A stretch of 64,000 nt of DNA from a bacterium (GCA_017961325.1 JAGCXM010000015.1:9408-73407), one strand, 5' to 3'. Positions 27,632 to 52,259 are shown, counted from the first letter of the stretch. The notes: generated by a model from the sequence alone, not told the origin. Made by a program: numbers and translations.

Positions 27632-30085
27632 TTAAAGAATCTTTTCGCTTTTCAGAAGACTCTCTTCATCGTATCCGGCAAGCTCTTTGCGGTAGCCGTT
27701 TTTGATTATGTGGAATTCTCCGGTGAAAGAGTCGAATTTTTTCATGACGCTTCCGAGTTCGGTCTGGTGTCTGATTGTCATTTCGAGAGTTTCATCATTA
27801 AAATCAAGCACTTCCAGGATTTCTTTTGCCGAATCGAAATCAGTTTTTTCAAAGAATTTCACGCGGTAGGTGCTTGTCGGAAGGGTTCTGAGGATCTTTT
27901 CGACTTTCTTTATCTTTTCGCGGTCGCATTTGGTGAAAGTGAGGAATTTTATTCCGGAATTTTCCAGAATTGAATTGAGTTTCGCCAGAGTTTCAGCCTC
28001 ATCGGTCTCTTCGGTGAGCCAGACCGTGCCGAATTCCTCGTCGACTTCGACTCCGACAGGTGCCGGAAACGCCAGATTGAAGCGCGGCATCGGGTGGAAA
28101 CCGTCGGAATAGAGGATCTGCAGGTCACTCAAAGTGAGCGCTTTGAAAAGGAACGAAACGAGATCCAGGTGCCCGATGCTTATCGAATTTCCGTGTTTCG
28201 AAAGAGAGAAGACATAAGGGAATGAGTTGTTTTTATTGTTCTTTTCGGGAATTTCAAAAGTCGCGTTCTCGTCAAGCGGCTCCCCCGTTCTGATCATCGG
28301 TTTGACCTCTTTGAAATCGCACGCGCCGCAGCCGTTGCACTTTCCGGTCTTCGCGCAGTCGGGAGTGACTTCGAAGTTGTATGCCTTTTCACGTTCGCTG
28401 AGGAGGAATTTCCTGTCGATCCTGAGGTCTATGTGCTCATAGGGAAGCGGTTTGTCCAGTGATTTCGGCAGATAAGTGCTTTCGGGGTCGATTCCCGCCG
28501 CCGCCATTCCCTGATCCCAGAGAACGGGGTCGAAACTGACGTCTTCGGTCTGGAGCCCTTTCATGTTTTTCGCAACGAATTCAATGACTTTGCCGTATTC
28601 GCGCCCGGCACGACTCAAATATCCTTCGACCGTGCTCACTTCCTGATCGTGCCATGCGAGTTTGATATTTTTTATGCCGCGCAGACTTTCGATGATTATC
28701 TTCTGCTTTGCCTTTATCTCCGCCGGACTCGACATTTTTTCCCACTGGAACGGAGTGAAGGGCTGCGGCACGAAAGTCGAGAAACTGACGCTTATCATCG
28801 CCTTTTTCCCGAATCTTTTTATATAGTTGCTCATTCTTTTGACGAGCTGCACCGTCTCGACGATGTCCCTTTCCTCTTCAAGCGGAAGCCCCAGCATGAA
28901 GTAGAGTTTGACCGCCTGCCAGCCGTTTGAAAATATCGTGTGGATCGCGTTGATGAGGTCTTCTTCGCTGTTGCCTTTGTTGATGACGCGGCGCAGTCTT
29001 TCGCTTCCCGATTCGGGAGCCAGCGTGAAGCCGACTTTTCTCCCTTTTCTGATGACCTGCGCGATCTTCGGAGTGATCGTTTCTGTCCTGAGACTCGGCA
29101 GAGAGACCGAGATCTTGCGACTGTAGCGGCTGTACGAACGGACCAAAATGTCTTCGATCTCGCTGTGGTCTGCCGCCGAAAGCGAGAGGAAACCCGCCTC
29201 GTCGTAACCCGAAGTCCTGACTACCCTGTCCAGAATTTCGCAGACATTTTCGGCACTTTTCTCTCTGTGCGGCCGGTAGAACATTCCCGCCATGCAGAAG
29301 CGGCAGCCTCTGGTGCAGCCTCGCATTATCTCGATCGTGAAGCGGTCGTGGATCGTCCTCATCGCAAATATCGGAGCGTCGAAAAGCGAGTCTGGATCGT
29401 AGTTGAGATCCGGAAGTATCGACCTTCTCGCGACCTGCCCCGAAAGAGAGCCGTCCTCGTTTATTTTGAGATCTTTACCGTTCTGAACCGACGGAATATA
29501 GACCGAAGGGATCTTCGCAAACGCCTCGAGACGCGCCTTTTTCCCTTTCACATTTTCTAAAATGTCCATGAATTCTTCAGCCGCCGGCTCGAACTCTCCG
29601 ATCGAAACAGCGTCGATGAAATCGGCCATCGGTTCCGGGTTGCACATGACCGGCCCGCCAGACCAGATTATCGGATAACTCTCTGAATTCATTCTGTCTT
29701 TCGAATGTATTGGAATCCCTGCGATCTCAAGGATCTTCAGAAAATCTGGGTACTGCAGCTGATACTGGAACGACACAGCGATAATGTCAAAATCGCGGTA
29801 GTTCACCCCGTGCATCATCGAAGTCAGACCGCCGCTTTTTGCAGCGATTTCAAATATATCCTTCTGCGGAGAGAAGCCGAAATCGACCAGAAATCCTCTC
29901 CTGTGGAAAAGCGAATAGAGGATCTTCACCCCGGTGTGGCTCTGTGCCATCTCGAAAAGATCAGGAAAAAGTATCAGTATTTTCGGCTTATTAGGGTCAG
30001 TTTTGACCTTAACAGTCTCGATAAACGGCGCGAAGTAGCGCCCCGGCTTTTCGATCCTGCGCAGAAAAGAAGTTACAAGTTTCAA
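27632..30085 (-). CDS. Radical SAM protein of the TIGR03960 family fused to a C-terminal DUF2344 domain
   Basis: CTRGCRFCMAG radical-SAM cysteine motif in the middle. B12-binding-like N-terminal region. C-terminal 220 aa resemble DUF2344 (GHLDLVSFLFKALTLS). Confidence 0.7.
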   Translation of the reverse strand: MKLVTSFLRRIEKPGRYFAPFIETVKVKTDPNKPKILILFPDLFEMAQSHTGVKILYSLFHRRGFLVDFGFSPQKDIFEIAAKSGGLTSMMHGVNYRDFDIIAVSFQYQLQYPDFLKILEIAGIPIHSKDRMNSESYPIIWSGGPVMCNPEPMADFIDAVSIGEFEPAAEEFMDILENVKGKKARLEAFAKIPSVYIPSVQNGKDLKINEDGSLSGQVARRSILPDLNYDPDSLFDAPIFAMRTIHDRFTIEIMRGCTRGCRFCMAGMFYRPHREKSAENVCEILDRVVRTSGYDEAGFLSLSAADHSEIEDILVRSYSRYSRKISVSLPSLRTETITPKIAQVIRKGRKVGFTLAPESGSERLRRVINKGNSEEDLINAIHTIFSNGWQAVKLYFMLGLPLEEERDIVETVQLVKRMSNYIKRFGKKAMISVSFSTFVPQPFTPFQWEKMSSPAEIKAKQKIIIESLRGIKNIKLAWHDQEVSTVEGYLSRAGREYGKVIEFVAKNMKGLQTEDVSFDPVLWDQGMAAAGIDPESTYLPKSLDKPLPYEHIDLRIDRKFLLSEREKAYNFEVTPDCAKTGKCNGCGACDFKEVKPMIRTGEPLDENATFEIPEKNNKNNSFPYVFSLSKHGNSISIGHLDLVSFLFKALTLSDLQILYSDGFHPMPRFNLAFPAPVGVEVDEEFGTVWLTEETDEAETLAKLNSILENSGIKFLTFTKCDREKIKKVEKILRTLPTSTYRVKFFEKTDFDSAKEILEVLDFNDETLEMTIRHQTELGSVMKKFDSFTGEFHIIKNGYRKELAGYDEESLLKSEKIL

Positions 30086-30223
30086 AATATTCTCCTAAAA
30101 CATGAATGTTTTCAGCAATCTACTTAATTTCTTCAATTAAAAGAACTCTTGTCAAAAGACGGCGATACTTTAAGGAAAATTGTGGAAAATGCAAGAGTTC
30201 AGGGGCGGACAGGCCGTATTCAG

Positions 30224-30287
30224 CTCAACGAATACGAACACTCATTTTGAGGTCAAAAATTTTGACCTCAAAAAAACACGTTATTCG
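30224..30287. repeat. Repeat family A, copy 1 (about 64 nt; contains the perfect palindrome TTGAGGTCAAAAATTTTGACCTCAA)
   Basis: Near-identical to 31995-32057. Internal 12-nt inverted arms. Directly followed by a 29-nt partial copy of repeat B (30289-30317). Confidence 0.85.
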
Positions 30288-30369
30288 CCGTTTAAAGCGG
30301 TAAATTTTGTGATTTTGCAATTTGAGGAAGTGTCAAGAAAAAGTTAACTTCGACTATCTTAGATTGTTT

Positions 30370-30690
30370 TTATCTGCCGCTATGACAAATGACATCGTAA
30401 CTACCATTTTGACTCCTGTCAGCTTGGGAGACATATACTCTACAATCCTCGCTCACAGAAACCGCAAGACCTTCAAGAGTTATAAAAGTAGCATAAGGAC
30501 ATTTCAGATTTCTGGAAGCAAGCGTTCTTGCATTTGCTTTCAGTTCGTCAGCAGTAGCCAGATACCGATTGATAGAACGGCAATAATCCTTTGCATCTTG
30601 AAATGACATGCGAGTTCCTGGAATCGGGGATGCCGCGGTAAGAATTGCAAAGCAGAGAATAAAGAAAGAAAGCAAAAAAAATTTTTTCAT
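30370..30690 (-). CDS. Small secreted Cys-containing protein, DUF1566/Lcl-like fragment (paralogue 1)
   Basis: Start reassigned to MKKFFLL (signal peptide) with a GGAG RBS. YCRSIN..LATADEL resembles the DUF1566 motif. Paralogous to 30743-31051. Confidence 0.55.
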   Translation of the reverse strand: MKKFFLLSFFILCFAILTAASPIPGTRMSFQDAKDYCRSINRYLATADELKANARTLASRNLKCPYATFITLEGLAVSVSEDCRVYVSQADRSQNGSYDVICHSGR

Positions 30691-30742
30691 GTCAAATCTC
30701 CGTAAAAAATTATCATCATCAAATAATACCTTTTGAGATCTT

Positions 30743-31051
30743 CTATCTTCCGATGCAGACAGCCTGATAACTAGAACCTTCTTTTCCTGTTCCAAAAGCA
30801 CTCACAACACAATTACTTCCGAAAGAAACGGTTTGATTGTTTTCGCCTATAAAAGTCTGTGGAGCACAATTAGTCATTCCAGCTGCTTTCATAAGCGATA
30901 CCATCTCGTAGGTATATGCCAACCGCATATTGATACTGCGGCAATAATTTACAGCCTGTTGATATGTAACAGCTCTGGGAACAGGTTTTACAGCTGCCGA
31001 AAGTGTTACAAAACTGAAAACCAAAACAAAAACCAAGAAAAATTTTTTCAT
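30743..31051 (-). CDS. Small secreted Cys-containing protein (paralogue 2; tandem duplicate)
   Basis: MKKFFLVFVL signal peptide. Shares YCRSIN and a C-terminal SY.V.C..GR with paralogue 1. Upstream 30 nt nearly identical to that of paralogue 1 (catgtcaaatctcc). Confidence 0.55.
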   Translation of the reverse strand: MKKFFLVFVLVFSFVTLSAAVKPVPRAVTYQQAVNYCRSINMRLAYTYEMVSLMKAAGMTNCAPQTFIGENNQTVSFGSNCVVSAFGTGKEGSSYQAVCIGR

Positions 31052-31096
31052 GTCAAATCTCCTTAAAATAAGTTGTTAAAAATTCACCTTTTCAGG

Positions 31097-31492
31097 CTAT
31101 CTTACAAAAAACACAAAATGTTCTAAGTCAACGCAGCTTGGACCTTCATCACCTTCAACGAAACCTACTACCCACCTGCAGTCAGGGCGGCAGTTTTCAT
31201 CTGAAGAAGACCAAAAAGTTTTGGAAAGATCCAAACCGATGCAAACTTCTCGAATTTGATACAGATATTTAAGTTCTTCTTTTGTCGGAAGCCGCCAGTC
31301 AGAAAATCCGCCTATCTTAGAATTTTTAGCACACACTTCGGCAGCCTCCCAAGACATTTTGCCGTCGATTTTCGTAATCATTTTGATTTTGCCGATAGCT
31401 TCATTCAGTTCAATGTAATCGCCATGATCTTCAAAAATGTTTTTCACTATAACCTCAATTTGCAAATGAACAAAAAACCGATTTTCGGACAC
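31097..31492 (-). CDS. DUF1566-domain protein (Lcl C-terminal-like), no obvious signal peptide
   Basis: WEAAEVCAKNSKIGGFSDWRLPTKEELKYLYQ is the canonical DUF1566 'WRLPT..EL' motif. Confidence 0.6.
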   Translation of the reverse strand: MSENRFFVHLQIEVIVKNIFEDHGDYIELNEAIGKIKMITKIDGKMSWEAAEVCAKNSKIGGFSDWRLPTKEELKYLYQIREVCIGLDLSKTFWSSSDENCRPDCRWVVGFVEGDEGPSCVDLEHFVFFVR

Positions 31493-31623
31493 CTATTTTT
31501 TTGTGTCCCAAACCTATGGTCAGCATTTTAATCTTAAATTTACTAACAGTCAAGAAAATAATTACTGGTGGTCAAAAATTATTTTCTGTATGTGATATAT
31601 TAAAAAAAGGAGGTGTTTTGAGT

Positions 31624-31956
31624 ATGGATGACAAAACACTTGGCAAACGGGTAAAAGCATTAAGGCGTAAAGCCGGAATAACGCAGCTTGACCTCGCATG
31701 TCGGGTAAATATCAGCGAAAGCTATATCGCGTTGATAGAAGCAGACAAACGAAAACCGGGAATGGATATAATCTCTACTTTGGCAAACGAATTTCATGTC
31801 TCCGTTGACTATCTTTTAAGCGGCAAAATATCAGAAGAAGACAATCTCATGCTCAAAGAATGGACATCTCTTATAAAGGAAAGACCTCAAAAAGATATCG
31901 AAAGCGCACTTAAAATCGTCCGTACTTTTTTTGAATGTGTGGACAGCAAAAAATAA
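31624..31956 (+). CDS. XRE-family helix-turn-helix transcriptional regulator
   Basis: LRRKAGITQLDLACRVNISESYIALIE HTH_3 motif. Start moved to the ATG preceded by AGGAGG (the ORF-track 5' extension lacks an RBS). Confidence 0.7.
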   Translation: MDDKTLGKRVKALRRKAGITQLDLACRVNISESYIALIEADKRKPGMDIISTLANEFHVSVDYLLSGKISEEDNLMLKEWTSLIKERPQKDIESALKIVRTFFECVDSKK

Positions 31957-31994
31957 TTTTCAGAAAGTTTCTCAGGCTAAATTTTATGTTCCGG

Positions 31995-32057
31995 CTCAAC
32001 AAATACCAATACTCATTTTGAGGTCAAAAATTTTGACCACAAAAAACACGTTATTCG
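31995..32057. repeat. Repeat family A, copy 2
   Basis: About 90% identical to 30224-30287 including the palindromic core. Confidence 0.85.
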
Positions 32058-32117
32058 GAAAGGCCTTCCTTTCACAAACTACAAAATCAAGCTGAAAATG
32101 CTTTGAACAGATTGCAG

Positions 32118-32157
32118 ATTTTATACATTTTCGGAATCCGATTCCGAATTTGTATAA
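32118..32157. repeat. Repeat family C, copy 1 (40 nt; contains the palindrome TTCGGAATCCGATTCCGAA)
   Basis: Direct repeat of 33395-33434. The pair flanks the AAA ATPase gene. Confidence 0.8.
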
Positions 32158-32169
32158 AAATTTTGTCTT

Positions 32170-33384
32170 TTAGATTGCGTCAATCGGAATCAAGCTGTTC
32201 ATTCCATCAATAGGCAAGGTTGAACCTGTCATGCAGAGGATACAGCCTTTGCCAGCTTCAAAATTATTTAAATACCTGATTACGCTGAAATTTTTCAACA
32301 CTTCCCTGCCGGGATTTGCTGATTTTTTGATTTCAATCGGGAAAATTTTTCCGTTTTGGACGATAAGCAGATCTATTTCCTTTGAATTGTTGTCGCGATA
32401 GTAGCAAAGACGACTTCTAATGTCTATTCCTTTATTTGCGTAACTTTTTATTATCTCTGAAACGACATAAGTTTCGAACATCGCACCGGACATTGCCGAA
32501 AGTTCAAGTGCCCTCGGGTTGTTCCAAAAACTCAGATAACATGCAAGCCCTGTGTCCATAAAGTAAAGTTTCGGCCGTTTGACAATTCTTTTGACAGTGT
32601 TTGCCGAAAAGGGTGAAAGGAGAACAACTATCCCCGATGAAACAAGAACGGAAAGCCATTTGTCAGCAGTTTTTGAATCGATTCCAATCTCTTTCGAAAT
32701 ATCCGAAAGGTTAAGTTCCTGAGCTGTTCTTGCAGCAGCACACGATATGAATTTCAGGAATTTTTCTTCATCCTTTATGTTTATGAGATCGCGGATATCG
32801 CGCTCCAGATAAGTCTGCATATATGAACCGAAGTAGTCTTCCGGCAAAATTTCCCTGTCTACGGTAAGTTTGGGCATCCCGCCTCTGTAAATTTGCCCGA
32901 AAACTTCCGAAATTGTTCTTTTCTGTTCAAAAAACGGCACGTCATCAGGCAGAAAAGCCTTGGATTCCCTCCCGATTATTTCCGAATAACTCAGCGAAAA
33001 TAAAGAAAAAACTGCGACTCTTCCTGCAAGAGACTCGCTCACGTTCTTCATTGCGTGGAACATCTGGGAACCTGTCAGAAAATACTGTCCTGAAGCATTA
33101 TTTTTATCAACATTTATCTTGATAAAGGGCAGAAGTTCCGGCGCATATTGGATTTCGTCGATTATCAAAGGTGTTTTATACTGCTGGAGAAACAGCTCAG
33201 GGTCGCTCTTTGCAAGCTGTTTTAAAGCGGGATAGTCCAAAGTCACATAGTTTATTCCGCTTCTTTTTTCTGCGAACTCTCTGAGCAGAGTGGTCTTTCC
33301 GGTTTGTCTCGCTCCACAGACCATGATTACCGGGAAATGCTTTGAAAGTTCTTCAATTCTTGAAATTGCTGTCCGTTCGATCAT
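32170..33384 (-). CDS. AAA-family ATPase with C-terminal DUF4143 domain
   Basis: Walker A GARQTGKTTL and Walker B LLIIDEIQ. Typical AAA_14/DUF4143 architecture. Start reassigned to MIERTAIS, preceded by a GGAGGAA RBS. Confidence 0.7.
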   Translation of the reverse strand: MIERTAISRIEELSKHFPVIMVCGARQTGKTTLLREFAEKRSGINYVTLDYPALKQLAKSDPELFLQQYKTPLIIDEIQYAPELLPFIKINVDKNNASGQYFLTGSQMFHAMKNVSESLAGRVAVFSLFSLSYSEIIGRESKAFLPDDVPFFEQKRTISEVFGQIYRGGMPKLTVDREILPEDYFGSYMQTYLERDIRDLINIKDEEKFLKFISCAAARTAQELNLSDISKEIGIDSKTADKWLSVLVSSGIVVLLSPFSANTVKRIVKRPKLYFMDTGLACYLSFWNNPRALELSAMSGAMFETYVVSEIIKSYANKGIDIRSRLCYYRDNNSKEIDLLIVQNGKIFPIEIKKSANPGREVLKNFSVIRYLNNFEAGKGCILCMTGSTLPIDGMNSLIPIDAI

Positions 33385-33394
33385 GCTTCCTCCG

Positions 33395-33434
33395 ATTTTA
33401 TACATTTTCGGAATCCAATTCCGAATTTTTATAA
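33395..33434. repeat. Repeat family C, copy 2
   Basis: ATTTTATACATTTTCGGAATCC(A/G)ATTCCGAATTT(T/G)TATAA, matching 32118-32157. Confidence 0.8.
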
Positions 33435-33546
33435 TATTCAGCTTTTGAGAAAATGACAGAAAAATTTTCTTTTCCAATCTAAACAGGGGAAAATCTGCTG
33501 ATTTTTGAGGCCTGAATACGAAAAATCCAACTTGGAAATTTTTAGT

Positions 33547-33630
33547 TTACCACGGAACCGAGATAAGTCCGGTAAAACCCATGAATGCAAGTGAGAAAAG
33601 ACCTGCTGTGACGAGCGCAGTCGCCTTGCC
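33547..33630 (-). pseudogene. Orphan duplicated 3' terminus of rnfA (encodes ...[27 protein letters not shown])
   Basis: About 80% nt identity to 38572-38660. Translation matches the last 27 aa of RnfA. No upstream ORF continues it. Confidence 0.8.
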
Positions 33631-33728
33631 TCAAAACCATTCCCCGGAAATCCCGTTGCAGGCTTTTCAATAGTTTAAGATCGGATTTTCGACAGATCAT
33701 GCCGTTTAAAGCGGTAAATTTTGTGATT
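33629..33728. repeat. Repeat family B, copy 1 (about 100 nt)
   Basis: About 90% identical to 34599-34699. A partial copy lies at 30289-30317. Confidence 0.85.
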
Positions 33729-33743
33729 TTTGAAAAAAAAGGA

Positions 33744-34037
33744 TCAGCTGTTTTGCGGAAGAAATTCTATTTTGAGTTTCATCCCCATCCCAATAGCCAG
33801 ACGCTGTAAAGTTCTAAGAGACGGATTTGCATTTCCTTTTTCAATTTTGCTGATGTCACCCTGCGCGATTCCGGTGCGCTCTGACAGTTCTTTTTGTGTA
33901 AGCCCTGACTGTTTGCGTGCATCAATGATTGCCTGAATCACGGCGTGTTCCGGCTGAAGCAGCTCGTATTCAGCCTTAAACTCGGGATTTTTCAGCTGTT
34001 CTTTGAGAAAATCATTAAACTTTTCGCCCATTTTCAT
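33744..34037 (-). CDS. higA: HigA-like XRE-family antitoxin
   Basis: HTH (LTQKELSERTGIAQGDISKIEKG). Overlaps and follows a HigB/Gp49-family toxin gene. Confidence 0.7.
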   Translation of the reverse strand: MKMGEKFNDFLKEQLKNPEFKAEYELLQPEHAVIQAIIDARKQSGLTQKELSERTGIAQGDISKIEKGNANPSLRTLQRLAIGMGMKLKIEFLPQNS

Positions 34038-34386
34038 CTCCGTTTCTACGCAAGTAATCGGCTCGGTATCTTTTTGCTTTTTCTATTTCTGCGACAGGAG
34101 TTTTCTGCGTTTTCTTGATAAAACCGTGAGTCAGCACGATCCGCCTGTCAACATAAAAGAAATAGAAAACACGCATTATATTTGTTTCGGCACGGGCTCT
34201 CAATTCAAAAATCCCGTCAGACAGATATTTCGAATAAGGCTCCCGTAAGTCGCAGCCGTTATCCTGCAGTATCGAAATCATGTCCGCCATTTTAGCCCTC
34301 ATTTTTACATCAAGTGACAAAAGAAATTCCTTTGCCGGCTGGCTGCCGTTCTCTTTTTCATAAAACTCGACTTCAAAACTTGTCAC
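34015..34386 (-). CDS. higB: HigB/RelE-superfamily toxin (phage Gp49-like, PF05973-type)
   Basis: 123 aa. Sequence pattern ...FELRARAETNIMRVFYFFYVDRRIVLTHGFIKKTQKTP of the Gp49/HigB family. Toxin-first order with an overlapping HTH antitoxin. Confidence 0.65.
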   Translation of the reverse strand: MTSFEVEFYEKENGSQPAKEFLLSLDVKMRAKMADMISILQDNGCDLREPYSKYLSDGIFELRARAETNIMRVFYFFYVDRRIVLTHGFIKKTQKTPVAEIEKAKRYRADYLRRNGDENGRKV

Positions 34387-34598
34387 AGAACCACTCCAAA
34401 AACTGTTTTATAGGATTTATCCTATTTTGTCAACATTTTTTACTTCAAAATCTCAATTTAATCTCAACAAAGAACAATTAAGATGCATTATTTAAATAAT
34501 CAGAATTTAAAATCAAGTTTTCGATTGTAGCAAGTAGAAAAGTTTAACTTTGCGGCAAACATGAATTTTCGTGAAGTGCAAAAAAGATGCTTTTATCG

Positions 34599-34699
34599 CC
34601 TCAAAACCATTCCCCGGAAATCCCGTTGCAAGCTTTTCCGAGAGTTTAAGATCGGATTTTCGACAAATCATGCCGCTTAAAGCGGTAAGTTTTGTGATT
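34599..34699. repeat. Repeat family B, copy 2
   Basis: CCTCAAAACCATTCCCCGGAAATCCCGTTGCA...CATGCCGCTTAAAGCGGTAAGTTTTGTGATT, matching 33629-33728. Confidence 0.85.
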
Positions 34700-34733
34700 C
34701 TGTGGAAATTTGACGGGTTAAACGACTTTTTGC

Positions 34734-35870
34734 TTACTTTTCTTTAGGCGGATTATCTTTCAAAAATAAAAGACCTTTTGCATCAAGCCTGTCGTCATTG
34801 TCAAACGGAATCCCTGCTTCTTTCTTTTTACGCAGAAGTTCTTGCGTGTAATACGCAAGTACAGATATTTGAATTCTGAAAAGCTCGCACATCGTTTTTT
34901 CACGTGTTGCAATATTGCCTGTATCACGGTAGTTGAAACCGTAACAAGTCGGGCAGATATTCAAAAGAGAACAATCAGCACAGAAAGGATCTGTATTGAC
35001 TTCTTGAGAAGAAAAATCCATCTTTTCTTGTAATTCAGCAGCCTTTTGAGTTCCCAAAACCATTGGAGTGAAAAGATGGCATGGGTAAGTTTTTCCGTCT
35101 ACATCGTAAGTTATCATATGGGTTCCGGTGCCGCACCATTTTTGCTTGGGATTACGCTCAATTGTCAAAAGTCCTATTCTCCTTGCAAACATAGGTATTG
35201 TTTCAACATTTGGATGCTCCAAATAATAATCTGCCAAAATCATTAACTGCTTACGAAATTCTTTTTTATCTTCTTCAGACCAAACTTGACCGTATCCACA
35301 GTTTGCTGAAAAATTCTTAGCCCCCTTTTCTATCAAATAAATGACTCCTGAAGCTAAATTTTTCAATGAGTCAGGAGATATAGTCATCTTAGCTCCTTGT
35401 TCAGGATAAGTTTTAAGGAAAAAATCCAAATCGACTTTACTAGCACAATTTGTTCTGTTCATATCCTGCGATTCCTCAGTTCCATCGTAGCTTATACCAA
35501 CAACAAAACGCTCTTTATGCTTAACTAGCCATTGTTTGATTTCATCAGTAATAAGTGTTCCGTTAGTAGTCGTGAAAAAGATATACGGAACCTCCCATTT
35601 CTGCGACCAAGTCCACTCCATAATCTCTTTCATCAAATCGAACTTTACAAATGGTTCACCGCCCATGAAATCGAACTCAATTTCATCAAAATCCGGCGAG
35701 TTTTTAACAAACTCAAACTCTTTTGTGATAATTTCTTTAGCCAATTCAAGAAGCATATAATGTTCATCTTTATATTTTTCGTAACAATAAACACAATTCA
35801 AATTACAGGAATGAGTTATAACCAAAGTACAACTCCTATGCCTTGACGAACTATTTTTATTTGAACTCAT
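34734..35870 (-). CDS. Radical SAM enzyme with C-terminal SPASM domain (RiPP peptide-modifying maturase candidate)
   Basis: CNLNCVYC radical-SAM motif near the N-terminus. C-terminal Cys clusters WCGTG...C...CADCSLLNICPTCYGFNY typical of the SPASM/twitch auxiliary Fe-S domain. Confidence 0.75.
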   Translation of the reverse strand: MSSNKNSSSRHRSCTLVITHSCNLNCVYCYEKYKDEHYMLLELAKEIITKEFEFVKNSPDFDEIEFDFMGGEPFVKFDLMKEIMEWTWSQKWEVPYIFFTTTNGTLITDEIKQWLVKHKERFVVGISYDGTEESQDMNRTNCASKVDLDFFLKTYPEQGAKMTISPDSLKNLASGVIYLIEKGAKNFSANCGYGQVWSEEDKKEFRKQLMILADYYLEHPNVETIPMFARRIGLLTIERNPKQKWCGTGTHMITYDVDGKTYPCHLFTPMVLGTQKAAELQEKMDFSSQEVNTDPFCADCSLLNICPTCYGFNYRDTGNIATREKTMCELFRIQISVLAYYTQELLRKKKEAGIPFDNDDRLDAKGLLFLKDNPPKEK

Positions 35871-35943
35871 TTACTAACCTCTGAATTTTTACAAAAAGAG
35901 AGAGCCAAAGGTCTCTCAGAAAAAAGTGATTAAACAAACAAAA

Positions 35944-36138
35944 CTAACTCGGATGATTTAAATCCCAAGTATTCGAAAACCTGCAAGAATCTAAACATTC
36001 TCCTTGGCAAGTTCCTGCACAACCACCATAACAATCATCGCAAGCATAGGATTGCTGGTTCCCAACAGATTCATAAGATACCGAACCAGATGAAACAACT
36101 GAGTTCAGCAACTCGACATCGTAATTTACATTACTCAT
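35944..36138 (-). CDS. 64-aa precursor peptide with a six-Cys core (CDDCYGGCAGTCQGECLDSC), ranthipeptide/SCIFF-like
   Basis: Start set at the ATG preceded by a GGAGGG RBS. Leader-like N-terminal half, then a Cx2Cx3Cx3Cx3Cx3C core. Lies 73 nt upstream of the rSAM/SPASM gene on the same strand, with a hairpin in between. Confidence 0.6.
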   Translation of the reverse strand: MSNVNYDVELLNSVVSSGSVSYESVGNQQSYACDDCYGGCAGTCQGECLDSCRFSNTWDLNHPS

Positions 36139-36313
36139 CTTTCCCTCCATGAAAAAAAATTAATAAAACAAAAAAACGGTCTTTTGACCAAGATTACAAA
36201 ACAACAGTATTTCAAAAATTTTCAATTGTCAAATTTATCAATGCTTTTGTATTTTGCAAATACTTTGATATTGCTTTAGTTTACTTTGGTTGAACGAGCT
36301 AAGAGGTGAAATC

Positions 36314-36589
36314 ATGTTCGGAGACAGAGTAAAGCAGGTGCGTGAAGCTCATAATTACAGCCAAGTGCAGCTTGCGGCCATACTTCATGTCTCAAGACAG
36401 ACAGTCTCAAACTGGGAAAACAACAACATAATGCCGTCAATCGAAATGCTCATCAAACTTGCCGACCTGTTCGGTGTTTCAACTGATTTTCTGCTGGAGC
36501 GCGACAACCGCCGCTCTTTGGATATCACCGGTCTGACAGAGATCCAGTGCGCTCACCTTAATCTTATAATTCAGGATATTTTGCAGTAA
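36314..36589 (+). CDS. XRE-family HTH regulator, divergent from the RiPP pair
   Basis: QVQLAAILHVSRQTVSNWENNN HTH motif. Start at the ATG with an AGAGGTGA RBS. Confidence 0.7.
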   Translation: MFGDRVKQVREAHNYSQVQLAAILHVSRQTVSNWENNNIMPSIEMLIKLADLFGVSTDFLLERDNRRSLDITGLTEIQCAHLNLIIQDILQ

Positions 36590-36818
36590 ATTCAGTGACT
36601 TAATCCCGTGACATTCTAATAAGAATTGGGAGGCTGTCGCAAATTGCAACAAACTGCAAGCATACAGAGGCTGAGACTTTGACAAAATCGCTTGATATTA
36701 ACATTAGATCTTTATCAAGAAATAATTTAAAATACAACAATGAGGCATGAAATAAAACTTGATTTTTGGAGAAATTATTGTTTTGTATTTCGCGAAACTT
36801 TTCTTTGGAGTTTGAAAT

Positions 36819-37808
36819 ATGGAAAACGAAGTGATTTTATACACAGATGAAAACGGAAAAACAAATGTTTCTGTGCGTTTTGCCGATGAAGATGTATGGG
36901 TAACACAAGCTCAGCTTGCCGAGATTTACAACACGACACAGCAGAATATCAGCCTGCACATTGATAATATTTACAGAGATGATGAACTGCCGGAAACGGC
37001 AACTCACAAGGATTTCTTGTTAGTTCAAAAAGAAGGCACTCGCAATGTAAAGCGTAATATTTCACATTACAATCTCGATATCATTATTGCTCTCGGCTAT
37101 CGAGTTCAGTCGGATGTTGCAGTGCGCTTCCGCCGTTGGGCGACTCAAAGACTTCACGAGTATATTCAGAAAGGCTTTGTTATGGATGACGAGCGGCTCA
37201 AGCAGGGGCGGAACCGTTATTTTAGGGAACTTCTGCAGAGAATACGCGATATCCGTTCAAGCGAGCGCAATTTTTATCAGCAGGTTACTGATATTTATGC
37301 TACTGCGACAGATTACGATCCGCGCTCGAAAACAACGCTTCATTTTTTCGCAACAGTGCAGAATAAACTTCATTATGCTGTACATGAACATACAGCGGCG
37401 GAATTGATTTATGAGCGGGTTGACAGTGAAAGGCCTTTTGTCGGCATGACAAATTTTAAGGGGGATTATGTTACAAAAGATGATGTGAAAATAGCGAAAA
37501 ACTACCTTTCTGAAGTCGAATTGCAGCGTCTGAATCTTCTCGTTTCGGAATTCTTGGATTTTGCGGAATTTCAGGCACTTGAAGAAAAACCCATGAAAAT
37601 GCAGGATTGGATCAAAGCTCTTGACAATCAGATAATAGCACATCAGCGCAAAATTCTTGAGGGAAAAGGCTCTGTCAGCCACGATCAGGCAATGAGAAAA
37701 GCTGAAAAGGAATACGAACTTTTCCGTAAGAAACAGCTGGCAAATCTTAAAAGTGACTTCGATTTATTTTTGAAAGACGTAAAAAGTCTAGAGAAATCCG
37801 AGAAATAA
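36819..37808 (+). CDS. RhuM-family virulence-associated protein
   Basis: N-terminus ILYTDENGKTNVSVRFADEDVWVTQAQLAEIY and overall about 330 aa match the RhuM family (PF13310). Confidence 0.65.
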   Translation: MENEVILYTDENGKTNVSVRFADEDVWVTQAQLAEIYNTTQQNISLHIDNIYRDDELPETATHKDFLLVQKEGTRNVKRNISHYNLDIIIALGYRVQSDVAVRFRRWATQRLHEYIQKGFVMDDERLKQGRNRYFRELLQRIRDIRSSERNFYQQVTDIYATATDYDPRSKTTLHFFATVQNKLHYAVHEHTAAELIYERVDSERPFVGMTNFKGDYVTKDDVKIAKNYLSEVELQRLNLLVSEFLDFAEFQALEEKPMKMQDWIKALDNQIIAHQRKILEGKGSVSHDQAMRKAEKEYELFRKKQLANLKSDFDLFLKDVKSLEKSEK

Positions 37809-37952
37809 CCTGCCTCAACCAGTTATCAAGTCGGCCAACCCATGAATGCAGGTGCGTGAGGCACATAATTACAGTCAGGTGCGACTTGCAACTCGGCTCC
37901 ATGTTTCCAAACAGGCAGTCTCGAACTGGGAAAACAACAACATTATGCCGTC
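37803..37952. pseudogene. Junction remnant: a degenerate third copy of the rnfA 3' terminus (37803-37848) joined to a truncated duplicate of the XRE gene from 36334-36441 (37849-37952)
   Basis: ...AAGTCGGCCAACCCATGAATGCA matches the rnfA-end repeat. It is followed immediately by an approximately 85%-identical copy of the HTH gene, starting internally at ...VREAHNYSQV. Confidence 0.7.
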
Positions 37953-37967
37953 AATCGAAGTCGGAAG

Positions 37968-38495
37968 TCAGATCAAAAGCATCGAACATCCGCCGGATTT
38001 GCCTTCATCCCCAGCGCCGTCGGAAGTGTTGTCGTCAGCTGCATCGACCTCCGGATAATCGGAGTCGTCGGTTTCCCAGCCTTCGACAGGTTCGGTTCCG
38101 CACTCTTCCGCCAAGACCGATCCGCATCCGTTTTCGCTGAAAGTGCCGGTTCCGGTCTTTAGATCTCCGACTCCGTAACACCTGCAGGCATAGTTGCCGC
38201 CGTATGCTACTGTACACTTGCCGGCCTCATTCCGACAACGGATCCGCGTATTTTTGCAGAGCTTTTCGATCTTCGCCATGCAAATTTCATTGCTAAGCGA
38301 AGTCGTTTCAGGCTGGACATTTTCATCGGAAACATATCCTTCGCCGTCCCGGCATTCACACTCCGAACGGATCAATCCGTCAGTCAGCGTAAGAGAGCAC
38401 TTTCCGAGTTCCGATTCACACGAAATACTTTTCTCTTCCGCAAAAAGAGCCGTTGCAACAGCAAAGACGGCAGCTAAAACAACTATCTTTTTCAT
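37968..38495 (-). CDS. Secreted Cys-rich protein with an acidic C-terminal tail; function unknown
   Basis: Signal peptide MKKIVVLAAVFAVATALFA. About 14 Cys in CxC/CxxC-like spacing. D/E-rich C-terminus. Good start context. Confidence 0.55.
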   Translation of the reverse strand: MKKIVVLAAVFAVATALFAEEKSISCESELGKCSLTLTDGLIRSECECRDGEGYVSDENVQPETTSLSNEICMAKIEKLCKNTRIRCRNEAGKCTVAYGGNYACRCYGVGDLKTGTGTFSENGCGSVLAEECGTEPVEGWETDDSDYPEVDAADDNTSDGAGDEGKSGGCSMLLI

Positions 38496-38571: not shown

Positions 38572-39159
38572 CTACCACGGAACTGCGATGAGTCCGGTGA
38601 AGCCCATGAATGCGAGTGAAAGAAGGCCGGCGGTGACAAGTGCGATCGGTGCGCCTTTCATTGCTTCGGGGATTTCGTAAAGCTCAAGGCGTTCCCTGAT
38701 CCCGGCAAAAATTACGAGTGCCAGGAAGAAGCCGAGAGCGGTCGCGATGGTGTAAACAACGCTCTGAAGAAGGTCGTAGTTTTTCTGAGTTACGAGGATC
38801 GCGACACCAAGAACAGCGCAGTTGGTCGTGATGAGAGGAAGGAATACGCCGAGAGCCTGATAAAGCGGCTGCGAAACTTTTTTCAGAATGATTTCAACCA
38901 TCTGCACAAGTGCAGCGATGACAAGGATGTATGCGACCGTCTGCATGAAACCGATGTTGAGCGGGATCAGGACGAGGTTGTAAAGCAGCCACGTGACTGT
39001 CGTAGCCAGGGTCATGACGAAAAGGACTGCCGCGCCCATGCCGACCGAAGTCGAAACTTTGTTCGAAACGCCGAGGAAGGGGCAGATTCCCAGAAACTGC
39101 GCAAAAACGATGTTGTTGACAAGTATCGCGCTTATGAAAACAAGAATATATCCAGTCAT
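38572..39159 (-). CDS. rnfA: Rnf electron-transport complex subunit A
   Basis: 195 aa, 6 TM helices, [11 protein letters not shown] motif. Confidence 0.85.
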
Positions 39160-43207: not shown

Positions 43208-43370
43208 ATTTGTTTCTGCGGAAATCGGTGAAAATCCGATGCTGTCCCGCAACCGTGAAGCTTTGAGCGAAGCCGGATACACAGACTCAAATCGAGGTAA
43301 TGAGTACCCCGAGGAGGGAAAAATTGCGATTATCAAAGGTTTGCACAATTTTTCCATTTTATTCACTTCC
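43208..43370 (+). ncRNA. Cobalamin (B12) riboswitch in the 5' leader of the lipoprotein gene
   Basis: Core AATCGGTGAAAATCCGATGCTGTCCCGCAACCGTGAAGC matches the conserved cobalamin-riboswitch segment (compare B. subtilis GGUGCAAAUCCUGCGCUGUCCCGCAACUGUAAGC). Lies between a promoter and the RBS. Confidence 0.7.
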
Positions 43371-48776: not shown

Positions 48777-51700
48777 CTAAGATGACTCTTCAGATTTCCT
48801 CTGATCTTCTTTAAATTGATCTACAAAAAATGTTAACAAGTTTTTGCCAAAATTGCTTCTCATAGAGTGGTTCTTACGCCAGATATTCATTTCATCATCA
48901 AAATTTTTGCTCATTCGATCCCTATAAATAAAGATTTGAAGAAGTGGTTCGATTGCATTAATGTCATGTGCGATTTTAGAATTGCAGGTTGTTAATCCGT
49001 TTAATTCCAGAACTAGAGCGTTAATAAAATTAAAATTACAGAAGTGCGGAAGCCTATTAAGTTCTTGTAAATCTTCGAGTTTAATTTTTTTGTTTTTTGG
49101 CAAATAATCTTGTACAAGAAGCATAAGTATTATCCTTGATAAATCGTAATTTTCTACTGGTTGAAATCTACAGAACTTATTATTTTCTGGAAGAAAAAAT
49201 AATGCTAATTGACAGCATCCCCATGTGTGATCAGTAAAAACAGTATGTTTTCCAAAATATTTTTCAATCCATTTAGACCGCATATTCTCCTTTAGTTCAT
49301 ATATATTTTTCAATTTTTCAATATAAATATTTTTATTTAATAAATTTTTAATATCACACACACGGTTGCGAACATTAGATTCAAGATAATCGTCCAATTC
49401 AAGTATCTTTTCTATCAACTCTTTAGCTTCTTCTATTTCTTCATCTTTTGAAATTTCTGGAAGACAAAATAGCTTGTAAAAAATTAAATTCAGAACGGTA
49501 ATTACGTTAATGTTTAATAATTTTTCTTCGCTTGAAAATCTAAATCGGCTTGAATATGTTGTTTTTGATTTTGCCTTGCTCTGTATATTGTATATACTAT
49601 CTTTCAAGAATTTATAAAGCGGGTCAATATTCTCGGATGTACACATTGTATTATCCAGCATAAATTCTTCATCGAACTTGTAACCATCTGTTGTGAAGTA
49701 TCGTATGTGAAAATTTCTATTGATTTGGTTTAGATAGCCATTGTAAATAAGCTCTTTATAAAAGTCATTCTCATAACTAACATCACCTAAAAATATTAAA
49801 CTTATCCCAATTGTTCGAATATAAACTCCAATGTCATAATCTAATTTTTGTTCCATATACATTTCTTTTCTTAAATAACCTATATATTCTCTATATTCTC
49901 TTTTTAAAATATTTATGACGTCTTCATCTTCCTCCCGCTTTTTGACGCGTCCAAGCATAAATGCAAGCTGAATCTTTTGATGTAACGTTATTCTATTATC
50001 TAATTCCTTATTCATAGTATCTTTGATTGATGTCACAGCTTTTTCAATACATTCTTTTTCTTGTTCATGTTGTAAATTATTAATTAAATAATCTTTAAAT
50101 TTATCTATTTTTTCATGCAACGTTTTCTTCTCATCCTTTCTTTTTATCATAAGGCTTTTAATGTTGTTTATGATAGTTCCAACAATTGATTCTCCGCGTT
50201 CATCTTTCAAATTATTCATCAAATAGACCGCGAACTTATTTATACCGACTGTAAGAATACAATTGAATAATTTTAATTTTTTTATTAAATCACCAGATTT
50301 ATTTTCTTGAAGAATAGAAATATAATAATAAGCAAGAAAATAATTTGTTATTGATTCTGACTTAAATAAACAATGAGATTTTACATATTCATCCACCTCA
50401 CTTTTTTCGCTGGATGTGCTATCTGCTAACAATGTCTTCGCTATATATTCAGCAGCACGACCAAGATTGTTAAGTGTTTTAGTGTAGTAATCATTAAATA
50501 TTTTGCCAACATTATAGCCCCAAAAATTAGACCTGTCTTGTTCGCAATCATAATATCTTTCAATAAAAAACAAGATAATTCTAAAGTCAACATATTGTCT
50601 TCCGAGCTCTTTTATCTTGTTACACAAGTTTTCTTTTAAATCATCTTGAAGTTCTATTTTTTTAAATGAGCCATAGTAATTCAATGTCAGATTAACAAAT
50701 TCCGCATTATCAATTTTTACAGGGTGAAAATAAATAATTTTTTCAGCTTTTATTTCACCTTGTTTATTATTTAATTTTGGATAAAGTTTTTGATCTAATT
50801 TGCCAATTGAATATACAATACTGAGTTTTGGAACGGTGCAGATTTTATTAATCCATGTACGTATTTCTGTTTCTAATTTGTCATTTACCATAAATAATGT
50901 TAGCCCATCAATAAGTAGGATTGTTTTTTTATTGTTATCAGACATTAGCCTACCCTCTATTTTTTCAAGATATTGTCTTAAATCAGTAAGAGTATCTTCT
51001 GTTTTCCATCTATTACCCTGATCATCCAAATCATAATTAGTAGAAATTAGGAATGGTTGTGTATTGTCCTTTTTTGAATTTAATAAACACTTATAGTAGA
51101 GCAAAGATAAAATAGTTGATTTCCCTGTTCCTGGTTCTCCTTCAATTGATAATGGATATTTGTTTTCAGATTTCGCAATATAATTATACATTTTATCCAA
51201 TTCTAATGCTGACCCGTCCCCATATGTTCTCAGAGCATCTTCGTTACATTGCATTGATATTGCAGCAATCAGTTTCTTTTGTAAATCTTCATTATCTTTT
51301 ACATCCTTAGCAAGATGATCTAAGAATTTCAAATCAAAGTCATTTGGTGTATATGTTTGATTCATTGTGGGTTTTGTTCCCATCTCTATCGTTAGCTTGT
51401 TTGAGGGTAGGTTCACATCATTAATATCAAGAATATCTCTTAATATGTCAATAATTTTATGATGTTTGTCTTGTTCATTATCTTTGTCTAGCTCATACCA
51501 AATTGGGTTAATCCCCATATTGACTAATCTTGAGAATCTTGCGTCTGCTTTTTTTGGATATGGCAATATTGCATAATGCCAATGATTGTATTTTTTTTTT
51601 GCCAATTCCTTCATTTTGTCTATTAGATAGTCATTATCGTTTAATCCACATCCCATAAACAGAATATTGGAATAATTCCAAAGACATTTCAGTGTCTTAT

Positions 51701-52259
51701 ATAAAGCTGATTCTTTCTTATATTTTTTATTAAAATCGTCTTTGGTTAGAATTATAGAATCATATTGATCATACGTACCATGAAGTTTTATCAATATTGG
51801 GTTTCTACTAGCAATTCTTTCAGTAATACTGTCCGTTTCTGTCATAGTACTTGGTGTAAAAATTTTGTTGTCAAAATTTATATTTGTCTCAATTATTGGA
51901 TCAAAATTTGTTGTAACAATTGTATGGATGTTTTTTTGTTTGAAATAATAAAGATAGTTGTCTTCATCGTTTCGTTTTTGTACTTTATTCGAATGAAACT
52001 CTGTAGAAACTAATTGTGAAAGGAGTCGATGTGGTAGCTTATCTGCAACCTCCCAGTATTTAAAACATTTAAGTAAATTACGGCATTCTTTATTTGTTTT
52101 TTCATCATCATTAAGCCTTATTGCTTTAAGCAGAAGATGTTTCCAATCTATAAGACCAAAACCAGCAGACATTCCAGATCCAATAAAGGGGATAAAATTT
52201 CCTTTTTTTAACTCACTAATATAAATTTTGTTGTTATCGAAAGACATTTTTTTCTCCAA
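48777..52259 (-). CDS. SIR2-like domain plus STAND P-loop NTPase plus C-terminal helical-repeat protein (Avs5/SIR2-STAND-type antiphage defence candidate)
   Basis: N-terminal SIR2_2 motifs: FIGSGMSAGFG..W, TTNFDPIIE, KLHGT, FMGCGLNDND. Central Walker A GEPGTGKST and Walker B ILLIDGL. About 600-aa C-terminal repeat region. The gene is conspicuously AT-rich relative to its flanks. Confidence 0.65.
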   Translation of the reverse strand: MEKKMSFDNNKIYISELKKGNFIPFIGSGMSAGFGLIDWKHLLLKAIRLNDDEKTNKECRNLLKCFKYWEVADKLPHRLLSQLVSTEFHSNKVQKRNDEDNYLYYFKQKNIHTIVTTNFDPIIETNINFDNKIFTPSTMTETDSITERIASRNPILIKLHGTYDQYDSIILTKDDFNKKYKKESALYKTLKCLWNYSNILFMGCGLNDNDYLIDKMKELAKKKYNHWHYAILPYPKKADARFSRLVNMGINPIWYELDKDNEQDKHHKIIDILRDILDINDVNLPSNKLTIEMGTKPTMNQTYTPNDFDLKFLDHLAKDVKDNEDLQKKLIAAISMQCNEDALRTYGDGSALELDKMYNYIAKSENKYPLSIEGEPGTGKSTILSLLYYKCLLNSKKDNTQPFLISTNYDLDDQGNRWKTEDTLTDLRQYLEKIEGRLMSDNNKKTILLIDGLTLFMVNDKLETEIRTWINKICTVPKLSIVYSIGKLDQKLYPKLNNKQGEIKAEKIIYFHPVKIDNAEFVNLTLNYYGSFKKIELQDDLKENLCNKIKELGRQYVDFRIILFFIERYYDCEQDRSNFWGYNVGKIFNDYYTKTLNNLGRAAEYIAKTLLADSTSSEKSEVDEYVKSHCLFKSESITNYFLAYYYISILQENKSGDLIKKLKLFNCILTVGINKFAVYLMNNLKDERGESIVGTIINNIKSLMIKRKDEKKTLHEKIDKFKDYLINNLQHEQEKECIEKAVTSIKDTMNKELDNRITLHQKIQLAFMLGRVKKREEDEDVINILKREYREYIGYLRKEMYMEQKLDYDIGVYIRTIGISLIFLGDVSYENDFYKELIYNGYLNQINRNFHIRYFTTDGYKFDEEFMLDNTMCTSENIDPLYKFLKDSIYNIQSKAKSKTTYSSRFRFSSEEKLLNINVITVLNLIFYKLFCLPEISKDEEIEEAKELIEKILELDDYLESNVRNRVCDIKNLLNKNIYIEKLKNIYELKENMRSKWIEKYFGKHTVFTDHTWGCCQLALFFLPENNKFCRFQPVENYDLSRIILMLLVQDYLPKNKKIKLEDLQELNRLPHFCNFNFINALVLELNGLTTCNSKIAHDINAIEPLLQIFIYRDRMSKNFDDEMNIWRKNHSMRSNFGKNLLTFFVDQFKEDQRKSEESS

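Follow-up and report, generated by a model that had tools for sequence, protein, structure and literature searches.

The core defence hotspots cDHS1 and cDHS2 of Pseudomonas aeruginosa have constant core flanks and belong to no mobile-element class; their transfer via homologous flanks has been proposed and is expected to be scarless, and although core-gene-flanked defence hotspots without mobility genes have been reported widely, how they are built has been stated as an open question (PMC10250203). The minimal mobile elements of Neisseria (Saunders & Snyder 2002; Snyder 2007) are, as cited in PMC3787668, different whole-gene cassettes located between two conserved genes, which possess no mobility genes of their own and are thought to move by homologous recombination. 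Here we describe a locus of this kind in a 64-kb stretch of bacterial DNA (GCA_017961325.1, JAGCXM010000015.1:9408-73407; hereafter the window, with all coordinates counted from its first letter), which is part of a 227-kb metagenome contig. Between a core radical-SAM (rSAM) gene of the TIGR03960 family and the rnfCDGEA operon, the window carries a small island of defence and toxin-antitoxin genes (~30.1-38.5 kb) in which three kinds of short intergenic repeats, A, B and C, lie between groups of accessory genes. The content of the interval between the same two genes differs among genomes, and no mobility genes are found inside it. We favour, with a probability of roughly 55%, the view that the repeats represent seams and landing pads in a modular island that has no integrase and occupies a core-gene-flanked hotspot, its modules being swapped by recombination at the junctions. 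The host clade consists of uncultured, mostly ruminant-associated, rumen spirochaete-like bacteria.

All three repeats were found within 1-2 nt of the positions given by an earlier reading made from the DNA alone (the sequence-only reading), with E-values from 1e-12 to 1e-37 and in the gene contexts that it had described; BLAST revealed no further copies of A, B or C elsewhere in the window. The 64-nt hairpin element A is represented by the native copy A1 (30223-30286), which contains a perfect 25-nt palindrome, and by A2 (31994-32058), identical to A1 at 60 of 66 positions (E 1.7e-19). Repeat B, ~104 nt in length, lies downstream of higA as B1 (33629-33732) and downstream of a radical-SAM maturase gene as B2 (34599-34703), the latter being followed by ~30 nt (34704-34733) that resemble the spacer called s1 below, so that the whole extends over 34599-34733; B1 and B2 agree at 96 of 106 positions (E 7e-37). 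B1 is made up of Bβ (33629-33700) and a 30-nt unit, Bα (33701-33730; GCCGTTTAAAGCGGTAAATTTTGTGATTTT). Bα occurs again at 30287-30316, where it directly abuts A1 and is 100% identical to the 3' end of B1; this native spacer unit is what had previously been taken for a partial copy of B. Of the two copies of C (~42 nt), C1 (32117-32160) is found 3' of an ATPase gene, between convergent XRE and ATPase genes, and C2 (33394-33437) lies immediately upstream of the ribosome-binding site (RBS) of the same ATPase gene, with 40 of 44 positions identical (E 6.6e-12).

Perfect palindromes had been reported for two of the families, which is correct for A1 and C1 but not for A2, in which one arm is mutated (GACCAC), nor for C2, in which the centre is changed. 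Prediction of secondary structure, which had been proposed as a check, yielded strong central hairpins for A1 and C1 as single-stranded DNA (z -5 to -6.7) and weaker ones for A2 and C2 (z -2.1 to -2.8); B as a whole has no fold beyond that of shuffled sequence (z ~0). None of the three repeats matched Rfam, either at the gathering threshold or at E-values up to 5, and scans of viral contigs with the cores of A, B and C returned zero matches or chance 17-mers. Two additional direct-repeat brackets, beyond those listed in the sequence-only reading, were identified in the window. One is a fossil fragment of the rnfA 3' end (termed 'R; approximately the last 85 nt plus the stop codon) at 33548-33630 on the minus strand, whose partner is the real rnfA end 5 kb away (38573-38655; 82% identity to 38573-38643). 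The other is a fragment of an XRE gene 5' end, present at 36331-36445 and 37845-37959 (83% identical), which brackets a RhuM gene. The window therefore contains five imperfect direct-repeat pairs, each bracketing one module or module group, with spacings of 1771 nt for A, 970 for B, 1277 for C, 1514 for the XRE piece and 5025 for the rnfA piece.

A 28-nt Bα pattern, scanned against 185,579 species-representative genomes, matched five stretches, one per genome (L009-L013), all of them at this same rnfA-rSAM locus. The five genomes are metagenome-assembled genomes (MAGs) of uncultured bacteria, four of them named for ruminant hosts and one labelled Spirochaetales, and all other comparators used here are likewise MAGs or metagenome contigs. 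In L010 the site is empty: read in the direction of rnfA, the rnfA stop codon is followed by 46 nt (s1), Bα, A, a promoter and the rSAM gene, with no island. Because this empty allele has one copy each of A and Bα, in the same order as at 30223-30316 of the window, A and Bα (the 3' 30 nt of B) are evidently the native spacer of the interval. The same Bα-A order is seen in L010, L012 and L013, and in a diverged form in L011. The rnfA end of L010 is 92% identical to the rnfA end of the window and 77% identical to the fossil fragment.

Seven further alleles (L134, L135, L136-L141, L142/143 and L146/147) were found via relatives of the core rSAM protein (82-94% identity); the orthologues of the TIGR03960 protein, 82-94% identical at the amino acid level, adjoin the same hotspot. 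Where both flanks are present on a locus, the rnfA-rSAM interval holds from 0 to ~8 kb of cargo, and this cargo differs in the other four Bα-containing genomes and in the seven further alleles, encompassing MNT/HepT, RelB/YoeB, PIN, ParE, ToxN, Abi_2, Lcl_C, radical-SAM/SPASM clusters, PDDEXK and Schlafen-AlbA, with PADLOC candidate defence genes among it. No recombinase domain was detected by Pfam in the islands of the ten other alleles. Between the blocks the same sequences recur. An island may contain as many as three copies of [s1]-Bα-GAATAACG; fragments of the rnfA 3' end, 15-160 nt long, are present in the window, L011, L012, L135, L136, L142 and L146; and A-type hairpins and pieces of the rSAM promoter region are likewise reiterated. 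In most blocks Bα lies 11-53 nt past the stop codon of the last co-oriented gene, with one exception at ~380 nt. The proposal that repeats partition a variable accessory region into modules is supported by this combination of one interval, differing cargo, recurring junction sequences and an empty allele; the suggestion of a recombination hotspot is borne out by the differing alleles between the same core flanks, and the recommended comparison of cassette presence and absence showed cargo that differs among alleles, L010 having none.

In a more distant clade (L136, L142 and L146), promoter-like sequence directly follows the rnfA stop codon, so that the s1-Bα-A block (~140 nt) is itself an indel between clades. 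Units composed of the rnfA end plus promoter are repeated inside the islands of that clade. Two P0002 relatives, L144 and L145, are uninformative with regard to the hotspot, as their rSAM gene is not beside rnf and synteny is broken. Toxins of the ToxN family (type III toxin-antitoxin systems, PF13958) are encoded in the hotspot in L011 (3793-4398) and L012 (2659-3264), both given in the rnfA direction, i.e. on the reverse complement of the stored loci, and in L146 (2515-3018); in L011 and L012 the final 39 nt of Bβ and then the fossil rnfA fragment come after the ToxN gene.

Comparison of the individual copies indicates where some of them came from. A1 matches the copies of L010 and L013 without a difference (100%), and A2 is closer to the copy in L012 (95%) than to A1 (92%). 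Likewise, the fossil rnfA fragment of the window is 98% identical to the fragment in L012, 96% to that in L011 and 76% to the window's own rnfA end. Since both are closer to the copies of other genomes than to their partners in the window, A2 and the rnfA fragment arrived with imported DNA; duplication in place, considered for both, is contradicted by these closer copies. The window and L010 agree at every position of Bα plus A (99 nt, TGAAT included), identity dropping abruptly beyond it to ~85% for the promoter and 82.5% for the rSAM gene, and a 500-bp tract that is 98% identical between the window and L013 ends ~20 nt past A. Such near-identical tracts are common to species whose core genes are 13-18% different, and conversely the native Bα-A copy of L011 is much more diverged than the core genes of L011. 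These sharp-edged blocks of identity, along with allele replacement, point to horizontal exchange or gene conversion over simple purifying selection.

When every fragment was mapped onto the empty-site reference, the breakpoints proved to be clustered. Left edges are concentrated just before Bα (reference positions 236-241, in at least four independent contexts), at s1 (209-216) and at positions -84 to -76 of rnfA, and right edges at the rnfA stop codon, ~10 nt past it, and where Bα (274) and GAATAACG (278-282) end. L146 and L142 differ by an insertion polymorphism, in which an old rnfA fragment is interrupted by a 2.7-kb block; at the right end of this insert in L146, Bα-Bβ lies beside rnfA(-85 to stop)-s1-Bα. 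Judging from these edges, the ~40-nt unit Bα+GAATAACG behaves as a discrete module-end element. Not every boundary is this clean: the homology of higBA between the window and L135 does not stop at B.

The sequence-only reading had treated A, B and C as three families of the same standing, a view that can no longer be maintained, as native spacer accounts for A and for the 3' part of B, and C is a duplicated 5' palindrome of a gene. B itself is a composite of Bα and Bβ. Over its first ~28 nt, Bβ matches an A-type hairpin variant located after Bα in other genomes (CTGTCGAAAATCCGATC), and its last ~39 nt directly adjoin the fossil rnfA fragment in B1 of the window, in L011 (twice), in L012 and in L146; L011 and L146 also have the complete composite Bα-Bβ-'R, and L012 has the 3' part of Bβ followed by 'R. 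Bβ was also considered as a decayed upstream part of rnfA, but local alignment scores equal those of shuffled sequences (z ~0). As for C, ATPases 88% identical to that of the island are encoded in eight loci at another chromosomal site, and there a palindrome corresponding to C2 is located between the RBS and a sigma-70-like promoter (TTGCAA-16-TATCAT) ahead of it. No copy of C was found downstream of the ATPase gene in any of these eight orthologous loci. Because they have the upstream palindrome and lack the downstream one, C2 is the ATPase gene's own 5' element and C1 an extra 3' copy, seen at no locus but the one described here. Among eight distinct variants of the A hairpin, 87.5% of cells are paired, as opposed to 35-64% when the partner is slid by 1-3 columns, and two pairs are changed on both sides (A-U/C-G and A-U/G-C). 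This lends modest support, from few related sequences, to conservation of pairing, and would fit either a hairpin or a symmetric protein-binding site. A small RNA gene spanning A-Bα on the plus strand was considered and dropped, as no promoter-like site was found upstream of A1.

According to the reading that we favour, DNA arriving from another allele of the hotspot would recombine, via a junction sequence, with the resident copy of that sequence, either by single-crossover insertion of a looped-out circle or by unequal exchange. Modules would be gained, lost and swapped in this way; such events would duplicate the junction, and the looping out of a module would leave behind a single copy of the junction as a landing pad. 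Because five unrelated sequences serve as brackets, the host's homologous recombination is favoured over one dedicated enzyme as the agent of these events. Several observations weigh against this scheme. Neither a recombination intermediate, nor a circle, nor a presence/absence polymorphism within the population was seen; the two other samples of the strain are 99.95% identical. The bracket pairs are short and diverged (77-92%, with longest exact runs of 11-33 nt), and are therefore poor RecA-type substrates as they now stand. A right edge that recurs sharply after GAATAACGY, and a Bα unit of discrete extent (~40 nt), resemble a specific site or a functional element under selection more closely than the outcome of random homology. 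B1 and B2 are, if marginally, each other's closest relatives (92%), so that B may have been duplicated in place. Furthermore, repeats can cause mis-assembly in MAGs and metagenome contigs, from which all comparators are drawn, and the empty site of L010 could in principle be an assembly collapse, although its rnfA end of the functional type speaks against that.

The sharp edges raise the possibility, in our view rather unlikely, that a site-specific recombinase encoded elsewhere, other than an integron integrase, uses the ~40-nt Bα+GAATAACG, perhaps together with the A-type hairpin, as an attachment (att) site, in which case each module would end in one site and cassette-like dynamics would result from an enzyme that is not supplied in cis. 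In the 19 junction-unit matches from 10 alleles, the right edge falls sharply after CGGC or GAATAACGY, with left edges grouped immediately ahead of AAAATCAC; each Bα closely follows the 3' end of a co-oriented gene block, and the pairing of the adjacent hairpin is kept through the two both-sided changes mentioned above. Fragments of rnfA end and start within a few nucleotides of one another (reference 118 versus 114-122), as expected of reciprocal products. Nevertheless, no recombinase is encoded in the window or in any island; the C, XRE and rnfA brackets are unrelated and would not be used by one site-specific enzyme; and the repeats are not always where homology between the modules of different genomes stops, as seen for higBA in L135. 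A possible 11-8-11 inverted repeat, GTAAACTTTTT-ACAAAATC-ACAAAATTTAC, spans s1 and Bα and might be taken for the core of an Xer-like site, but its left arm is missing in several copies (WIN_B1, WIN_Bp and L136_c) and this candidate was rejected; all copies of the junction unit are direct rather than alternating, and the 11-6-11 arrangement of Xer/dif sites was not observed. An unlikely explanation of another kind is that selection maintains the repeats at module ends as functional elements with a regulatory or insulating role, their repetition reflecting function and not recombination history. Bα and C would then be plus-strand terminators directed against antisense or convergent transcription, and C2 and the A hairpin would serve as operators or as structures of the 5' untranslated region (5'-UTR). 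Indeed, all three copies of Bα and both copies of C were called terminator-like on the plus strand; a plus-strand XRE gene is closely followed by Bα, in terminator orientation, in L009 and L011; C1 sits between the convergent XRE and ATPase genes; the counterpart of C2 occupies the space between promoter and RBS in the orthologous ATPase loci; and the stem of Bα varies as T.G / C-G / T-A while the pairing of the A hairpin is conserved. However, the orientation of these terminator-like copies is opposite to the genes that they follow, apart from one weak minus-strand call at B2, the stem of Bα measures only 4-5 bp, and A received no terminator call and has no T-tract on either strand, so the original remark that the repeats are unlike ordinary terminators of the adjacent genes was apt. 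Function alone also leaves unexplained the co-repeated rnfA 3' fragments and promoter pieces and the 99-nt block identical across species beside 85% flanks, and the native copy in L011, far more diverged than the core genes, argues against strict purifying selection. Bα and C may still insulate modules against convergent or antisense transcription, and a regulatory or insulating role does not exclude the recombination reading that we favour.

The layout of the island, with small, mostly co-oriented cassettes, many of them toxin-antitoxin pairs and each followed by a conserved site, also resembles an integron, and A and/or B could then be attC sites of a degenerate integron, that is, one of the attC clusters lacking an integron integrase (CALINs), which are common without a nearby intI (PMC4889954). 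The 64 nt of A fall within the 63-68 bp of Treponema attC sites (PMC3607928), and its AAC...GTT triplets are correctly ordered on either strand. We nonetheless consider this very unlikely. In general, attC sites are imperfect palindromes of 57-141 nt that have complementary R'' (RYYYAAC) and R' (GTTRRRY) boxes, an L box and extrahelical bases. Treponema attC sites have fully complementary R boxes, e.g. GTCTAAC...GTTAGAC (PMC3607928); the end boxes of A (GCTCAAC/GTTATTC) pair at 4 of 7 positions, its stem is perfect and without extrahelical bases, and its spacers are asymmetric (15 versus 6 nt), so that the search for R/L box symmetry proposed earlier turned out negative. A covariance model (R1) built from five Treponema denticola attC sites gave, with filters off, only weak matches (best E 2.4, range 2.4-9.6), in which A (7.5 bits, E 6) and C (8.2 bits, E 3.9) did not stand out from unrelated positions, and it returned nothing over 181 kb made up of the window and the hotspot loci; an attC of the Treponema type was rejected on these grounds. 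B is unfolded, A and Bα are present once each as ordinary spacer in the empty site, and the search for an integrase or other recombinase came up empty, with no integrase, resolvase or transposase domain of Pfam in the whole 64-kb window, no recombinase in any island, and no intI (PF00589 with the IntI-specific insertion) or pseudo-intI in the window or any allele. That the repeats are dispersed mobile elements resembling miniature inverted-repeat transposable elements (MITEs) or repetitive extragenic palindromes (REPs), or else assembly artefacts, is extremely improbable, even though A and C are short and palindromic and all of the data are metagenome assemblies. The copies are specific to the locus instead of dispersed, with no others in the 64 kb and with Bα in five species genomes only, always at this locus, and this removes the basis for the MITE-like interpretation put forward before; no terminal inverted repeats with target-site duplications were found at A1 or A2, whose flanks differ, and the flanks of A are absent from all of the 120 metagenome matches to its core that were listed. 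As for artefacts, the same arrangement was assembled independently in two other samples (L003 and L004), and related ones are present in many other MAGs.

These metagenome matches to the core palindrome of A (30247-30271), found in at least 120 contigs (loci L014-L133), lead to a separate family of sequences. In about two-thirds of the matches listed, the palindrome lies inside the coding sequence of an ORF6N domain (PF10543, E 1e-33 or better) and reads L-R-S-K-I-L-T-S; in several contigs it is also present just upstream of the ORF6N gene. The ORF6N palindromes are 25-30 nt long and perfect (GAGGTCAAAAATTTTGACCTC and co-varying variants), and often form tandem in-frame units. In a set of 29 distinct motif copies without the 21-mer used in the search, 21 have perfect arms of 12-14 nt, compared to a mean of 3.6 nt upon synonymous-codon resampling, and some copies alter the peptide yet keep the palindrome, e.g. 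LRCKNCTA from GCGGTGCAAAAATTGCACCGC. These figures point to the palindrome itself, as DNA or RNA, being under selection in ORF6N genes, although the sample, having been fetched via the palindrome, is biased and provides a lead rather than a result. We found no paper linking ORF6N to a palindrome. The hairpin variants of the hotspot resemble members of this family, and a distinctly unlikely proposal is that the A-type hairpin (GAGGTCAAAA/TTTTGACCTC and co-varying variants) is a DNA or RNA signal, such as a protein-binding or recombination site, common to the hotspot and to gut and rumen ORF6N genes, Bα plus hairpin being the landing site of an undescribed hairpin-recognising recombination system. 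If true, such a system would build cassette arrays without an integrase in cis. An origin of A as a remnant of an ORF6N pseudogene was rejected, as the palindrome alone is shared and the flanks are not. In one low-coverage human-gut contig (L057, compared with L108/L125/L133 and L036/L039/L130), the N-terminal halves of two different ORF6N genes are joined head-to-head exactly at the palindrome, which is either a recombination product or an assembly chimera.

The island has a G+C content of 35-43%, compared to ~50% in its flanks. On one side it is bounded by the minus-strand TIGR03960 gene for a B12-binding radical-SAM protein (27632-30085; NCBIfam TIGR03960, E 6e-144), the promoter region of which (30086-30222) abuts A1, and on the other by rnfA, the last gene of rnfCDGEA (38572-39159, minus strand), whose 3' end is the other copy of the rnfA repeat. 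L003 (99.95% identical) and L004 represent the same strain and are accordingly uninformative as comparators. Module 1 (30370-31956), bracketed by A2 on one side and by Bα+A1 on the other, consists of genes for two small secreted paralogues (30370-30690 and 30743-31051) and an Lcl_C/DUF1566 protein (31097-31447), all on the minus strand, and for an XRE regulator on the plus strand (31624-31956); this block recurs in L013 and L135. A 76-nt repeat inside it (30632-30707 and 30993-31068; 78% identical) covers the start, signal peptide and RBS regions of both secreted paralogues and is a tandem gene duplication. Module 2 is the AAA_14/DUF4143 ATPase gene (32170-33384, minus strand; Pfam), a PADLOC candidate defence gene (PDC-S01, E 1e-103). 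Module 3, bracketed by B2 and B1, is a toxin-antitoxin pair of higB (Gp49 family) and higA with its own promoter/operator (33744-34386, minus strand); higA recurs in L135 at 91% identity.

Module 4 (34734-36150, minus strand) encodes a radical-SAM/SPASM-type peptide maturase and a 68-residue precursor with Cys repeats of the form C-x2-C-x3-C-x3-C-x3-C-x3-C. The maturase, assigned by Pfam and by NCBIfam TIGR04115 (E 6.5e-44, below the curated cut-off), is closest to the CXXX-repeat and ranthipeptide PapB families, again below the curated cut-offs, and the module looks like a small cassette for a ribosomally synthesised and post-translationally modified peptide. Comparable radical-SAM cassettes with Cys-rich peptides are present in the hotspots of L009, L011, L136 and L146. 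Module 5 (36290-37960, plus strand) includes an XRE regulator (36290-36589), RhuM (36819-37808; PADLOC PDC-S05, E 7e-141) and a truncated XRE copy (37846-37960) that ends at a Cys-rich lipoprotein gene. The latter (37968-38495, minus strand) adjoins rnfA and is also found in L012 (93% amino acid identity). Outside the island, a 1160-residue protein (48777-52259, minus strand) has an N-terminal SIR2_2 domain that resembles the SIR2 defence modules of ThsA and LmuA. A partial match to the cobalamin riboswitch (43220-43280, plus strand; 32.7 bits against a gathering threshold of 31.5) is located directly after tRNA-Lys and tRNA-Glu genes and upstream of a gene for an 811-residue acidic repeat protein.

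The locus retains a readable record in the form of repeated spacer and rnfA pieces between modules, an empty allele, and modules common across species, and it supplies concrete junctions as well as a ~40-nt candidate landing pad open to testing. Moreover, three intergenic repeats of similar appearance prove here to differ in origin, each from the others, and this calls for caution in calling arrays integron- or MITE-like from layout alone. Among better-known arrangements, integrative islands accrete in tandem at gene 3' ends through att duplications of the tRNA/tmRNA type (see also Williams 2002, cited in PMC10250203). As in that process, imperfect direct repeats of the 3' end of a target gene, here rnfA, bracket the inserts, and older copies are displaced distally; in contrast to it, no layer contains an integrase, the left breakpoints are not constant (-25, stop codon), and the A, B, C and XRE brackets bear no relation to the rnfA end. 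In the pdif modules of Acinetobacter plasmids, which depend on Xer, the boundaries are 28-bp 11-6-11 sites of alternating orientation and the recombinase is encoded elsewhere. These modules share with the present locus small toxin-antitoxin and accessory modules bounded by short conserved sites, but all copies described here are direct, and the sole candidate inverted repeat (11-8-11) is missing from several of them.

Integron arrays and CALINs (PMC4889954, PMC3607928) likewise contain small, mostly co-oriented modules, each followed by a short conserved site, with strain-variable cargo rich in toxin-antitoxin systems. Unlike integrons, the locus has no intI, its sites fail the Treponema attC model and are without complementary R boxes or extrahelical bases, these sites are copies of native spacer, and many of the modules carry their own promoters. 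The resemblance to cDHS1 and cDHS2 lies in a variable region of defence genes that has constant core flanks and no mobile-element class; in contrast to those hotspots, this locus is full of scars, is much smaller (0 to ~8 kb), and is rich in toxin-antitoxin pairs and small secreted proteins. With the minimal mobile elements of Neisseria it shares differing whole-gene cassettes between two conserved genes without mobility genes, but here several modules are present at once, separated by repeated native spacer and pieces of the flanking gene's 3' end, and the scars record a stepwise accretion and are absent from the definition of minimal mobile elements. The closest known concepts are thus the minimal mobile elements of Neisseria and the core defence hotspots, and the scars at this locus are missing from both descriptions.

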